Of a stretch of DNA of 33,220 nt, positions 16,288-24,993 are shown one piece after another. The notes beneath the pieces are model-generated. The model was not told the origin of the DNA. It saw only the letters and a list, made by a program, of their open reading frames with translations, and did not search any database. Positions within the stretch are counted from its first letter, which is position 1. Every line of letters starts with the position of its first letter. The translations under genes were made by a program, and so were the position numbers. This DNA comes from a virus (taxonomy: Duplodnaviria > Heunggongvirae > Uroviricota > Caudoviricetes), in the IMG/VR virus record IMGVR_UViG_2874920711_000012, positions 1 to 33,220 of that record, one strand, 5' to 3'.

Positions 16288-16337
16288 GTTGTATTAGCTT
16301 ACATATCTATGGCACAGAGTAAAGCCTAATCTGATAG

Positions 16338-16372
16338 TCCGCTCTGTGCCAGGAGCAGACATTACCAACGTT
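16338..16372. repeat. Copy A of a ~35-nt conserved motif (GC-rich stem with loop TGTGCCAG) that recurs at 20342-20376
   Basis: TCCGCTCTGTGCCAGGAGCAGACATTACCAACGTT versus TTCGCTTTGTGCCAGGAGCGGACGTTGCCAGCATT, about 80% identity; also pairs with an upstream arm TGGCACAGAG (16310-16319 with 16342-16351). Confidence 0.5.
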
Positions 16373-16644
16373 ATGACCCTCGATTACATCAAAGAGCCCT
16401 ATAGCCGAAACCTGCACCATAGCCATCTCTGTAGAATTCGTCCTAGGGGCTTTTAACAGACCTAGTTGTATGGATCGGAAGGAAATATTAAAGCTCAAGG
16501 CGTCAGTCCAGTGCTGTCCTGTTTGCTTACCACACGAAAGAGTGCTGCTTGTACCTGCTAACTAATGGTATGCGGAGTGAGGGGGCGGGTAGAACCAAAA
16601 GCACTTACTACGTGTGGCGCTCTCCTGGAAGAGGAGACGTCGAA

Positions 16645-16731
16645 GTGATAACGCTAACAACAGTCTTACTGGTGATGCAAATAATGCTAGCTGGTCTGGT
16701 TGTCATCAAGCAACTGACCGGACGCCCGTAA
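16645..16731 (+). CDS. Candidate small hydrophobic peptide (28 aa, GTG start), type I toxin-like
   Basis: GAGGAG Shine-Dalgarno 8 nt upstream of GTG; peptide MITLTTVLLVMQIMLAGLVVIKQLTGRP; an intrinsic terminator hairpin follows and is split by IS2. Speculative. Confidence 0.3.
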   Translation: MITLTTVLLVMQIMLAGLVVIKQLTGRP

Positions 16732-16865
16732 GGGATGGAGGAACTTGATTAAAGGCAGGGGGTTACCTCCCCTGCTAGACTGGCCCCTGAATCTCCAGAC
16801 AACCAGTATCACTTAAATAAGTGATAGTCTTAATACTAGTTTTTAGACTAGTCATTGGAGTACAG

Positions 16866-17231
16866 ATGATTGATGTCTTAGGGCCGGAGAAACGCAGACG
16901 GCGTACCACACAGGAAAAGATCGCAATTGTTCAGCAGAGCTTTGAACCGGGGATGACGGTCTCCCTCGTTGCCCGGCAACATGGTGTAGCAGCCAGCCAG
17001 TTATTTCTCTGGCGTAAGCAATACCAGGAAGGAAGTCTTACTGCTGTGGCCGCCGGAGAACAGGTTGTTCCTGCCTCTGAACTTGCTGCCGCCATGAAGC
17101 AGATTAAAGAACTCCAGCGCCTGCTCGGCAAGAAAACGATGGAAAATGAACTCCTCAAAGAAGCCGTTGAATATGGACGGGCAAAAAAGTGGATAGCGCA
17201 CGCGCCCTTATTGCCCGGGGATGGGGAGTAA
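16866..17231 (+). CDS. insC: IS2 InsC (orfA)
   Basis: [56 protein letters not shown]… IS3-family orfA. Confidence 0.85.
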
Positions 17232-18094
17232 GCTTAGTCAGCCGTTGTCTCCGGGTGTCGCGTGCGCAGTTGCACGTCATTCTCAGACGAACCGATGACT
17301 GGATGGATGGCCGCCGCAGTCGTCACACTGATGATACGGATGTGCTTCTCCGTATACACCATGTTATCGGAGAGCTGCCCACGTATGGTTATCGTCGGGT
17401 ATGGGCGCTGCTTCGCAGACAGGCAGAACTTGATGGTATGCCTGCGAACAATGCCAAACGTGTTTACCGGATCATGCGCCAGAATGCGCTGTTGCTTGAG
17501 CGAAAACCTGCTGTACCGCCATCGAAACGGGCACATACAGGCAGAGTGGCCGTGAAAGAAAGCAATCAGCGATGGTGCTCTGACGGGTTCGAGTTCTGCT
17601 GTGATAACGGAGAGAGACTGCGTGTCACGTTCGCGCTGGACTGCTGTGATCGTGAGGCACTGCACTGGGCGGTGACTACCGGCGGCTTCAACAGTGAAAC
17701 AGTACAGGACGTCATGCTGGGAGCGGTGGAACGCCGCTTCGGCAACGATCTTCCGTCGTCTCCAGTGGAGTGGCTGACGGATAATGGTTCATGCTACCGG
17801 GCTAATGAAACACGCCAGTTCGCCCGGATGTTGGGACTTGAACCGAAGAACACGGCGGTGCGGAGTCCGGAGAGTAACGGAATAGCAGAGAGCTTCGTGA
17901 AAACGATAAAGCGTGACTACATCAGTATCATGCCCAAACCAGACGGGTTAACGGCAGCAAAGAACCTTGCAGAGGCGTTCGAGCATTATAACGAATGGCA
18001 TCCGCATAGTGCGCTGGGTTATCGCTCGCCACGGGAATATCTGCGGCAGCGGGCTTGTAATGGGTTAAGTGATAACAGATGTCTGGAAATATAG
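17189..18094 (+). CDS. insD: IS2 InsD (orfB, DDE transposase domain)
   Basis: 301-aa ORF overlapping insC in another frame, typical IS3-family orfA/orfB arrangement. Confidence 0.85.
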
Positions 18095-18180
18095 GGGCAA
18101 ATCCACCTGCCTTTTTTCGTTTCTGCGCAAGTTAGCTCTGTTATTATAATCCTTACTCACACTGTAAGGACATAGTTCAA

Positions 18181-22545: not shown

Positions 22546-22826
22546 TCTGACATCAAGAGCGCGGTAGCCTTTTTTAATATTTCATTCTCCATTTCAATGC
22601 GTTGTAGCTTTTTCCTCAGCTTACGTATTTCGATTTGTTCTGGTGTTATCGGAGAGGCTTTTGGTGTTTTGCCCTGACGCTCATCACGCAGTTGTTTGAC
22701 CCATCTTGTCATTGTGGAAAGGCCAACATCCATAGCTTTGGCGGCATCTGCCACCGTGTATTTCTGGTCAACAACCAGTTGAGCGGATTCGCGTTTAAAC
22801 TCTGCGCTAAAATTTCTTTTTTTCAT
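22524..22826 (-). CDS. IS911 orfA
   Basis: [57 protein letters not shown]…; A AAA AAG slippery motif near its 3' end. Confidence 0.85.
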
Positions 22827-22898
22827 TGGAGCACCTGTGTTGTTCTGAGGTGAGCATATCACCTCTGTTCAGGTGGCCAAATTCAGTGTGCCACTTCA

Positions 22899-23475
22899 AC
22901 TCGACGATCAACGATAGCGGAGACTCAGGTGCAATCTCGGAGCGAATCGCCGTAAGAGAGAGTCGGAGCTCCTTCAAAGAATCCGAGACTCGTGCTGGAT
23001 CCTCTTGAGCATATGGCAGATAAAGAGAACTCTTGTCTTCCAATAAATGGATCAACCGCAGAGCAATTTTCTCGTCTGGGCGATGCGATAGAAATTGAAA
23101 CATTAGCCTCTTTCCTCCCTCCAAGCACTCCTTCATTAGTGATTCGTGGTCACGTTTCCATTTTCGCAAATACTCGGCGGGGTAGCCCATACCGCCATTC
23201 TTATCAACTAAATCAGCACAAGCTCCGCACAACCATATAGCATTTTTTATGCTCTTCCGCTCTGTTTCTGACTGAGACATGTCATAGCGCGGTCCGCCAG
23301 GGCTCGCCGCGCAGATATGCGCCGCCTCACCCGTCTTGATAGAAAGATTTTCCGCCAATTGATCCGGGCCGATTGTTACCCTATGACAAGAGGGATTGCT
23401 ACAAATATATGTAGCGCGCTCTGCTACCTTACCTACAACGCTTGGAGGAAAGTTGTGCCTATTTGTCTTGGTCAT
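22899..23475 (-). pseudogene. 5' part of an HNH-nuclease-domain gene (~250 aa when rejoined), interrupted by IS911
   Basis: N-terminal region has CSNPSC, AAHICAASPGGPRY and NAIWLCGACADLV, an HNH-like arrangement; the ORF-track C-terminus beyond 22899 is IS911-derived. Confidence 0.6.
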
Positions 23476-23499
23476 AAAAGTTATGCTTCTTTGTTTTTT

Positions 23500-24597
23500 T
23501 CATCTATGTGGGGAGAATAAAATCATACTTTTTATATCTGATCCTAAATAGCTGCGCTTAATACCGCTACACTTTTGCCAGTCCATGTTTGCCTCCGGGA
23601 ATGGGCTGACGGTTTCCATAAAATGGCGAACTTTTTTCAACAGTTGCCACATTGAGCGGCACTGATGATTACGCGTTATTGTGTCGTGAAGTGCCTGCCA
23701 TAGCCGTTCAACATGATTCACCCATGGCGAGTAAACCGGCTGATAAATGACCCTGAACTTCGGGTTCTCCTTCAGCCAGCTCTGTGTTTCCCGGCTTTTG
23801 TGGATAATGTAGTTGTCCACGATCAGCGTGATGGTTTTCGCCCGACGGTATGTCGCTTTAAGCCGCTTCAGCAGGCTGATGAACAGCGCCGAACTTTTGC
23901 TGTTGCCGCCCACATAGCTGACTTTACCTGTCCCGCTGTGCAGCGCTCCGGCCAGATAATATTTTTCATTCTGTCCCGGCGTGACCACCCGTTTTTGCTG
24001 TCCGCGCAGTTGCCAGTCCGCACCGATTTTGGGATGAAGATGGATATCCACTTCATCTTCATAAAAGACCGGATGCTCTGCGCTGCATTCGTCCAGTGCT
24101 TTATGGATTGCTGCCATCTTTTCATCTTTATGCGGGTCACGGATACGCAGAGTTGGCGCAGCCCTTCGCCACACAATCCCCGCAGACGGCAACCAGCGGC
24201 GAACGGTTCCGGCATTTAACTGGCAACCGGTTATCTCATTGATTTTTATTGCCAGCAGTTCTGTACTCCAGCGTGAACGCTGGTAGACAAAGTCGCCGGG
24301 AGAATGTTTTACCAGCTCACGTAACAGTGTGCAGATATGCTCAAACGGCCAGCGACGGGCACGCCCGGCAGGTAATGATTTCAGTCCCTCAACACCCGAC
24401 TGCGTGAACCAGTTAATCCAGCGTCCAACAGAGGAACGGGCGCAGCAGAGCGTTCTGGCAACGTCGCTGACACGGTCGCCCCGGTGCAGCATCAGCATGG
24501 CAGTCAGTCTGCGGGCATAATTTTTATCGTGTGTTTTATGGATGGCTTTCTGCATCAGGCGTCGTTCGTCACGGGAAATTGGTGCTATGATCGGCAT
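23500..24597 (-). CDS. IS630 transposase (ORF as called runs past the IS end)
   Basis: MPIIAPISRDERRLMQKAIHKTHDKNYARRLTAMLMLHRGDRVSDVARTLCCARSSVGRW… matches IS630 transposase as recalled; the last ~15 codons lie outside the element. Confidence 0.85.
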   Translation of the reverse strand: MPIIAPISRDERRLMQKAIHKTHDKNYARRLTAMLMLHRGDRVSDVARTLCCARSSVGRWINWFTQSGVEGLKSLPAGRARRWPFEHICTLLRELVKHSPGDFVYQRSRWSTELLAIKINEITGCQLNAGTVRRWLPSAGIVWRRAAPTLRIRDPHKDEKMAAIHKALDECSAEHPVFYEDEVDIHLHPKIGADWQLRGQQKRVVTPGQNEKYYLAGALHSGTGKVSYVGGNSKSSALFISLLKRLKATYRRAKTITLIVDNYIIHKSRETQSWLKENPKFRVIYQPVYSPWVNHVERLWQALHDTITRNHQCRSMWQLLKKVRHFMETVSPFPEANMDWQKCSGIKRSYLGSDIKSMILFSPHR

Positions 24598-24698
24598 TGC
24601 TCAGTCCGGTTGGTGATTTGTTTTGATTTGGCGATTGATCAGATCGCACAATCCGGGCTAAGTTCCCTCAAAATGATCTACTATTCCGCGCAGCTATT
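23547..24698 (-). mobile_element. IS630 (1152 bp) inserted at a CTAG target with TA duplication
   Basis: Terminal inverted repeats AATAGCTGCGC… at both ends; TA at 23545-23546 and 24699-24700, flanked by C and G. Confidence 0.85.
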
Positions 24699-24993
24699 TA
24701 GGTCTGACCAGCAACCTATTGATCAAAAAACCAAGATATTAGCTAAAAAAATCAGCATACTTGAGACCAAGCTCAATGTCCGCTCCTCGCTCAAAGCAGA
24801 CTGTCAGATTTGATAGCATTTGGGCTATGTAAATTGTCAGGCGGAAAATGAGTGAGTACAAATCAGGACAGGCGGGCGAATTGCCCGCATTTTCTTTATC
24901 TGTTGTTTCATCCCCTGACCAGCCAGGTCAAATAGCGTCTCATGCTCTGCACAACAGAAAATAGTTGCACCCATTAACCACGGAGTTAAACGG

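Follow-up and report, generated by a model that had tools for sequence, protein, structure and literature searches.

The site between genes G (tail fibre assembly) and FI (tail sheath) is one of the variable cargo or defence hotspots of P2-like phages (PMC6823313; PMC13586616). P2 itself carries there a single gene, fun(Z), annotated as blocking the growth of T5 (NC_001895), and a survey of P2 and P4 hotspots has described defences as being swapped without pseudogenization, defence pseudogenes being rare (PMC13586616). In this work we have analyzed the same site in a P2-like prophage, positions 16288-24993 of the Caudoviricetes record IMGVR_UViG_2874920711_000012 from IMG/VR; the whole stretch of 33,220 nucleotides is called the window throughout. 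Three cargo genes, designated A, B and C, and four insertion sequences (IS) occupy the site.

Two further described systems are relevant to this locus. DS-29 is a validated single-gene anti-phage system (DeWeirdt, Mahoney and Laub, Science 2026; PMC13092281) which, when cloned alone in MG1655, caused replicated drops in plating of about 10^6.3 for Bas60, 10^5 for T4, 10^3.7 for Candy and 10^1.3 for RB69; its assignment to the HEPN proteins rests on an HHpred probability of 0.59. The second is the expansion of IS in Shigella. The median number of IS insertion sites per Shigella chromosome has been put at about 190-290 by ISMapper, values called underestimates in comparison with completed references (Hawkey et al. 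2020, PMC7373316), against a median IS copy number of 32 in completed E. coli chromosomes, and in Shigella IS insertions are, per base, 3- to 9-fold less frequent within genes than in intergenic DNA (PMC7373316).

Taken as a whole, the locus is likely to be a fun(Z)-type hotspot with a cargo of three defence units in repeat-delimited modules, which has decayed through IS insertion in a defective Shigella prophage. The middle gene as DS-29, defence cargo in P2 hotspots and IS-driven decay in Shigella were already known; the two candidate defence genes on either side of DS-29 and the repeat-delimited borders come in addition.

The G-FI hotspot and its insertion-free allele

The interval 16288-24993 is exactly the gap between the stop codon of gene G (15760..16287, plus strand; annotated in the prophage of E. 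coli cM2a and in phage 9W, Pfam Caudo_TAP) and the start of FI at about 24994, which is preceded by the pF promoter region, and the locus is collinear with phage 9W and P2. The proposal of an earlier note on this DNA, that the interval corresponds to the site at which P2 holds the single fun(Z) gene, is borne out. Both sites have the same flanking genes, conserved stubs on the two sides and a cargo of anti-phage type with a low content of guanine and cytosine (GC). They differ in the cargo itself, which in P2 is one gene and here comprises three genes in two modules, unrelated to fun(Z) and broken by four IS.

A megablast search with positions 16000-25300 against complete E. coli genomes returned no record that covered most of the region. 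The P2-like prophage of E. coli cM2a (locus L001), inserted next to yegQ at the same chromosomal site as the prophage studied here, has matches to the two ends and to about 46% of what lies between them; aligned to it, 16288-24993 falls into five collinear blocks, neighbouring blocks overlapping by 5, 9, about 3 and 2 bp. After removal of the four IS together with one copy of each target site duplication (TSD), the locus measures 3658 bp in comparison with 3661 bp in the natural L001 locus and is 99.4% identical to it (16 substitutions and five one-base indels). The original cassette can be reconstructed in this way, as the earlier note had expected, and a natural copy of it exists in cM2a, at NZ_CM176588.1 1667942-1671602. 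The flanks match 1186 E. coli genomes and the cargo only 15. More than 1000 P2-like prophages of E. coli have the flanks alone in common with this locus and carry different cargo (Lit, SMEK, Sll1717 ATPase, S1 peptidase, DUF3606), so that conserved flanks enclose variable cargo at this position.

Read against L001, each of the four IS has a TSD of its own, which agrees with the earlier claim of four independent insertions. IS2 of the IS3 family (16776..18105, plus strand, 1330 bp; TSD CCTGC at 16771-16775 and 18106-18110) is 99.4% identical to the annotated IS2 of Shigella phage SfX, with orfA at 16821-17231 and orfB at 17189-18094, and has entered the stem of a terminator, about 70 bp upstream of the gene A start codon. 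The second element (18956..20255, minus strand, 1300 bp; TSD CCCTCCGGG at 18947-18955 and 20256-20264; ends CTGAGGGATCCCC.../CTGAGGAATTCCC...), previously described as IS10-like, is ISSfl1 of the IS4 family (99.7% identity to the annotated element), which has a DDE_Tnp_1 transposase, IS10-type ends and a 9-bp TSD; its transposase is intact (397 amino acids) in a sister Shigella locus (L006). It occupies the terminator 3′ of gene A, 262 bp upstream of gene B. IS911, again of the IS3 family (21652..22898, minus strand, 1247 bp; TSD ACT at 21649-21651 and 22899-22901; 98.8% identity to IS911 of phage Sf6), interrupts gene C after about codon 191, and the same insertion, recognizable by a 222-amino-acid chimeric protein, is present in S. 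dysenteriae and S. boydii isolates. Both IS3-family elements have terminal inverted repeats, orfA and orfB, and TSDs of 5 bp (IS2) and 3 bp (IS911). The fourth element, IS630 (23547..24698, minus strand, 1152 bp; 99.7% identity to the annotated IS630), encodes a DDE_3 transposase, has duplicated TA within a CTAG target and lies 70 bp upstream of the start codon of gene C. Three of the four insertions are intergenic, IS911 being the one inside a gene.

The stems of intrinsic terminators have been hit twice, by IS2 (16751-16775 with 18106-18119; GGCAGGGGG...CCCCTGCC followed by a T-run) and by ISSfl1 (18940-18955 with 20256-20275; AGCCGTCCCTCCGGGGCGGCT followed by a T-run). The sister locus L006 (CP027027.1) has an additional insertion of about 1.2 kb, the size of IS30, nested in IS911, which brings the number of IS at the locus to five; this nested element encodes a transposase of 383 amino acids with HTH_38 and rve domains (IS30 family).

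The defective prophage and how its IS load may be read

S. dysenteriae chromosome CP026824.1 contains the window with 100% identity. Two NCBI chromosomes, CP026824.1 and CP027027.1, encode the chimeric open reading frame (ORF) of 222 codons that arose through the IS911 insertion, the latter being the sister genome that carries L006; the NCBI organism name for the protein is Shigella dysenteriae, and a variant differing in one residue is present in isolates of S. boydii and S. dysenteriae.

Lesions are also found outside the cargo. An IS4 element (4526-5950; Nterm_IS4 and DDE_Tnp_1 domains, ends TAATGCCGATCAGTTAAGG, 13-bp duplication GCGCCAGGAAACC) interrupts the major capsid gene N directly behind its codon 5, and the prophage therefore cannot make capsids. 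A deletion of 1.25 kb relative to phage 9W, with its junction at about 7238-7253 and an overlap of about 16 bp, has taken the 3′ two-thirds of the terminase gene M, the whole of L and the start of X. Judged by these lesions and by a further IS630 in the old/tin hotspot, the prophage is defective.

Four IS in so short a segment had been taken in the earlier note as a sign that the cargo is dispensable or counter-selected in the host. A related reading would be positive selection in Shigella for silencing of the cargo, be it a self-toxic HNH nuclease or a defence that is costly in an intracellular pathogen. We estimated the chance of such a cluster for assumed totals of 200-600 IS per genome and a locus of 3.66 kb, 39% of it intergenic, under uniform and intergenic-weighted models. 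Under either model four IS in 3.66 kb are locally unlikely (P of 1e-4 to 1e-2), which tells against a purely neutral reading and makes some selection for inactivation possible; in addition, two of the IS affect gene C directly, IS911 from inside and IS630 from 70 bp upstream, and a frameshift in gene A is common to 12 contigs. The same calculation gives 0.1-20 such four-IS bins per Shigella genome, depending on the assumed number of IS, and several of them are expected at 400-600 copies. Moreover, no IS has touched DS-29, the only gene whose activity is proven; three of the four IS lie in intergenic hairpins or upstream DNA, a class of sites favoured genome-wide in Shigella (PMC7373316); IS have also entered the capsid gene and another hotspot of the same prophage; and the IS within an IS of the sister strain represents a neutral landing. 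Selection for silencing is on balance improbable. The clustering is notable and is not by itself proof of counter-selection; neutral accumulation in a dead prophage appears to be its best explanation. The earlier suggestion is thus weak, given an IS-rich host, a dead prophage, mostly intergenic insertions and the expected number of clusters. Since the host is laden with IS and the prophage was already dead, the IS load would reflect the expansion of IS in Shigella more than selection on the cargo. The published account of this expansion (PMC7373316), in which IS2 and IS911 were screened in S. flexneri and IS630 is mentioned, resembles the present case in its intergenic bias and in the inactivation of accessory genes, and nothing essential differs.

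The second cargo hotspot of the prophage, at the old/tin position, has likewise been struck by an IS. The last 40 bases of another IS630 form one end of the window (1-40), inside a gene fragment, and abut the 3′ end of a gene (41-275, 77 codons) that encodes an RHKLAH motif (Rx4H, HEPN-type). The third P2 moron site, the S-V gap that holds orf30 in P2, contains in the window (9973-11269) a 1.3-kb insert of 33-36% GC; its two minus-strand ORFs (139 and 220 amino acids) gave no match in Pfam.

Three cargo genes as candidate defence units

The cargo named in the earlier note, a protein with a transmembrane (TM) anchor, a protein of 261 amino acids and an HNH protein, corresponds to three real genes. 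Gene B (20526..21311, plus strand, 261 amino acids, intact) is identical in 260 of 261 residues to WP_061089765.1, the Table S8 sequence of DS-29 (working identifier HEP3). The locus had accordingly been characterized as far as its middle gene is concerned, A and C being predicted defence genes. In the ECOR strain used for DS-29, A and C likewise flank the gene (NZ_RRWI01000012.1 1039-3776; PMC13092281). Adjacent residues R225-H226-G227, preceded by FTGTAN, are invariant in the B family, and the fold may be HEPN-like, with a four-helix up-down bundle. Diverged homologues of B occur without C, next to DUF2971 and SIR2-type genes or in an integrative and conjugative element. DS-29 is, on its sequence, the only intact cargo gene in the window and is possibly functional in Shigella.

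Gene C has been split by IS911. Its 5′ fragment (22899..23475, minus strand) retains a Cap5-type HNH (HNN) nuclease domain and the first half of the C-terminal domain and is read within the truncated chimera of 222 amino acids (ORF 22807-23475). The 3′ fragment (21473..21651, minus strand) comprises the last 59 codons, part of the DUF6650-like domain, fused in frame in this assembly to a frameshifted orfB of IS911; the fused product has a weak precomputed match to PF20355. The intact gene of L001, on the minus strand and convergent with B, encodes 250 amino acids with an N-terminal HNH and a C-terminal DUF6650-like domain. With N203, E213, R222, K223, G226 and N228, IS911 removes roughly half of the residues that are invariant in the C-terminal domain, and with IS630 sitting upstream as well the gene is broken here.

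The HNH domain of gene C belongs to the Cap5 clade. It matches the PADLOC model PDC-M68A (3.6e-24), CBASS effector models (down to 3.6e-20) and the structures PDB 9om4 (6.6e-14), 8ysq (6.4e-9) and Cap5 7rwk (2.6e-8), and residues C25, C30, H53, N78, C83, C86, D91 and N93, which include the zinc cysteines, are invariant in the family. Cap5 effectors of CBASS are, however, SAVED-HNH proteins of about 385 amino acids, whereas only residues 1-120 of the 250 of gene C match SAVED-HNH models, no SAVED domain is seen, and no CD-NTase gene lies nearby in the cassette or in the homologue loci examined. As regards the C-terminal domain, PF20355 (DUF6650; PF20355.5) is precomputed for 120 of 120 gene C homologues among the matches listed, and the NCBI protein name says the same. 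DUF6650 is the effector domain of ThsG from type VI Thoeris, which responds to 2′cADPR (bioRxiv 10.64898/2025.12.03.692087), and is also part of the single-gene system DS-27 (SMEK-DUF6650) (PMC13092281). Gene C resembles both in this precomputed and named assignment and differs from them in having an HNH domain where they have N-terminal TM helices or SMEK, and in the lack of a TIR partner: there is no TIR gene in the cassette or beside any gene C homologue examined. These homologues stand alone in defence islands or form a moron between the Q and holin genes of lambdoid prophages, and neither TIR nor A or B genes lie in their vicinity. Gene C is listed in Table S5 of PMC13092281 as a 'predicted novel defense gene' with log-odds of 5.5, outside the units tested there.

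Gene A (18181..18862, plus strand), a pseudogene in the window, encodes in E. coli a membrane-anchored protein of 227 amino acids (WP_000141343) with an N-terminal TM helix that a low-complexity linker connects to a conserved helical C-terminal domain. The family is small and has no Pfam model; neither A nor B found a match in Pfam, NCBIfam or PHROGs. Gene A also appears in Table S5 of PMC13092281 as a 'predicted novel defense gene' (log-odds 5.3), again outside the tested units. Its DNA is present in 33 complete E. coli genomes, alone in 18 and as A-B-C in 15, and diverged homologues are found in a Vibrio cassette array, a Pseudoalteromonas islet, a conjugative element and an island with KAP-NTPase and Abi_2 genes. 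The family profile (residues 66-180) matches PDB 7kh1, the baseplate organization protein gp11 of the myophage XM1, with E 8.7e-5; this hints that the protein may derive from a phage baseplate component and is kept as a lead only.

Upstream of A lies an unannotated stretch of 0.4 kb (16361..16775, plus strand), present in 32 of 5426 E. coli genomes. At its end stands one half, the left, of an intrinsic terminator (stem about 16751-16775), which in L001 occupies 3752-3780 and has a T-run behind it. The stretch had been described as a structured leader with a peptide ORF and counted as a possible fourth cargo item. This description and the fourth item find no support. An Rfam scan of the IS-free locus gave nothing below E = 0.1; the fold of the 5′ stretch scores z = -2.9 with the terminator included, a value partly driven by the terminator and insufficient for a structured RNA; and the DNA upstream of diverged gene A homologues has neither a small ORF nor any sequence in common with the stretch.

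The three genes most likely act as stand-alone systems and not as one machine, for they occur independently elsewhere and activity has been published for B alone. The IS-free locus has intrinsic terminators before and after gene A, and B and C are convergent, so that A, B and C form three transcription units. A single cooperating defence system, dismantled by the IS insertions, is a doubtful alternative. One version of it would make C a signal-activated HNH effector with DUF6650 as a nucleotide sensor like that of ThsG, and A its membrane partner; the response of the Thoeris effector domain to 2′cADPR is in its favour, as is the adjacency of B and C, which are found in 15 complete E. coli genomes, always together (15 of 15 genomes carrying either), always with A and at 99.4% identity or more, and which also stand side by side in Klebsiella and Enterobacter copies. 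On the other side, B protects alone when cloned (PMC13092281), the transcription units are separate, diverged B homologues occur without C and diverged C homologues without B, A or TIR, and A is found without B-C, for example in the island variant L025, where it stands alone between the same neighbours. The linkage of B and C has been seen solely in copies of 99% identity or more and would therefore reflect the recent spread of one cassette.

Several observations weigh against this picture of three defence units. The adjacency of B and C in all 15 E. coli genomes makes cooperation of these two genes possible within this cassette. For the defensive role of A and C, which we infer, the support consists of the DefensePredictor log-odds of about 5.3 and 5.5. 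The B family has no conserved canonical Rx4-6H motif of HEPN proteins. The AlphaFold2 model of gene A is poor (predicted local distance difference test score of 55). Our own scans with PF20355 found no match in gene C itself and weak ones in 4 of 20 relatives (best E 6.9e-4), and hhalign detected no similarity between the gene C family and DS-27, a weak comparison, one side of it being a single sequence.

The reading frames of the window call for caution. Compared with CP027027.1, the window shows 4 substitutions and 18 one-base deletions, all 18 on the window side and within runs of G, C or A (for example at 18267, 25118, 25812, 26386, 28082, 28130, 28501 and 30112). The sheath gene FI (396 amino acids), the tape measure gene T (752 amino acids) and the transposases of IS630 and ISSfl1 are intact in the sister. 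Given this one-sidedness, the homopolymer context and the intact sister genes, most frameshifts of the window, including those that split FI, T and several transposase genes, are almost certainly uncorrected homopolymer assembly errors and not decay. It is accordingly most improbable that the frameshifts in A, FI, T and the transposases mark the whole locus as a heavily mutated relic, many structural genes of the window being indeed split by one-base deletions relative to phage 9W, but with only the second frameshift of gene A common to window and sister. The first of the two one-base deletions in gene A, at 18267, is absent from the sister genome and is judged from this comparison to be an assembly artefact. 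The second, which shortens a run of seven G to six near codon 203, is probably real, since it is common to the sister and to a product of 205 amino acids (WP_284525847.1, S. dysenteriae) encoded on 12 contigs, which has lost conserved C-terminal residues.

Palindromic repeats at the cargo borders

The borders of the cargo and of its modules coincide with a 24-bp core (GTCCGCTCTGTGCCAGGAGCAGAC), a palindrome of the form GTCCGCT-N10-AGCGGAC with a 7-bp stem and a 10-nt loop, present three times in the window and not once in 100 shuffles. The left copy (16337..16360, plus strand; L001 3338-3361) stands where the P2 backbone ends and the variable cargo begins, the internal copy (20341..20364, plus strand; L001 4700-4723) where the A module meets the B-C module, and the right copy (24778..24801, minus strand; L001 6734-6757) where the cargo ends and the P2 backbone resumes. 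The cargo is thereby bounded by an inverted repeat of 36 nt, its left and right copies being 86% complementary. Phage 9W has the same inverted pair of cores and P2 has the left copy. Homology of L001 to each of four other E. coli P2-like prophages (with Lit, SMEK, Sll1717 ATPase or DUF3606 cargo) stops at 3360-3364 and resumes at 6729-6739, that is at the cores, and in the two-gene Lit cargo a further core separates the two genes. Where the cassette occurs in chromosomal islands, its ends lie no more than about 25 bp from the cores, most of them exactly at the core edge, and the A-only variant L025 runs from core to core, with homology ending exactly at L001 4723.

From these borders we infer that cargo modules travel between P2 hotspots and islands through recombination at or near the palindromes. 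Two considerations run the other way: cores at the borders could reflect co-transfer of flanking DNA and not crossover, and in Erwiniaceae and many alphaproteobacterial metagenome-assembled genomes the motif is an intergenic repeat by ordinary genes, resembling repetitive extragenic palindromic (REP) sequences. More than 120 motif loci turned up in a scan of species-representative genomes, none of them in the P2 G/FI context, and a literature search for the repeat sequence returned nothing relevant. It is a tentative proposal, and one we think will more probably fail than stand, that the 24-bp repeat is the actual crossover or recognition site linking the P2 G-FI hotspot with CP4-like islands and e14-like elements, A and C being further stand-alone anti-phage genes. 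If it is true, the G-FI hotspot would be a repeat-delimited cassette system.

Integron attC sites were also considered for the repeat, prompted by its same-orientation arrays in the alphaproteobacterial genomes and by the gene A homologue in a Vibrio cassette array, and were rejected: the RYYYAAC...GTTRRRY core sites are lacking, and the arrays flank ordinary housekeeping genes in a REP-like manner. An island with Ag43 and GTPase genes carries the cassette followed by a gene for 366 amino acids, WP_001375260.1 (5920-7020 in L025, 8996-10096 in a second locus, L026); the protein has the same length as DS-38 ('HEP2', WP_001313577.1), to which it is likened by length alone, and the end of the island may be a small defence islet.

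The history that we propose for the locus would begin, before any IS, with a 3.4-kb mini defence island of two modules, the first made of the non-coding stretch and the membrane-anchored gene A, the second of B (DS-29, putatively HEPN-like) convergent with C (HNH-DUF6650-like), with the cargo being swapped by recombination at or next to the 24-bp repeats. The prophage would then have turned defective in the Shigella lineage, and the genome-wide expansion of IS would have brought four elements into the cargo, IS2 and ISSfl1 into terminators, IS630 upstream of C and IS911 inside C. The outcome would be the destruction of C, a C-terminal frameshift in A, and DS-29 as the one gene left intact.

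This locus is a counter-example to the generalization that defences in P2 and P4 hotspots are swapped before they become pseudogenes; it departs from that pattern (PMC13586616) likely because cargo exchange is no longer open to a dead prophage in a host rich in IS. It places DS-29 in a P2 hotspot next to two widely distributed candidate defence genes, the HNH-DUF6650 gene and the gene for the membrane-anchored protein, and provides the exact sequence of the IS-free cassette for cloning. Its repeat-delimited borders offer a testable handle on the movement of cargo between phages and islands. The locus is a well-documented meeting of two known processes, the exchange of cargo at P2 hotspots and the IS-driven decay of Shigella genomes.

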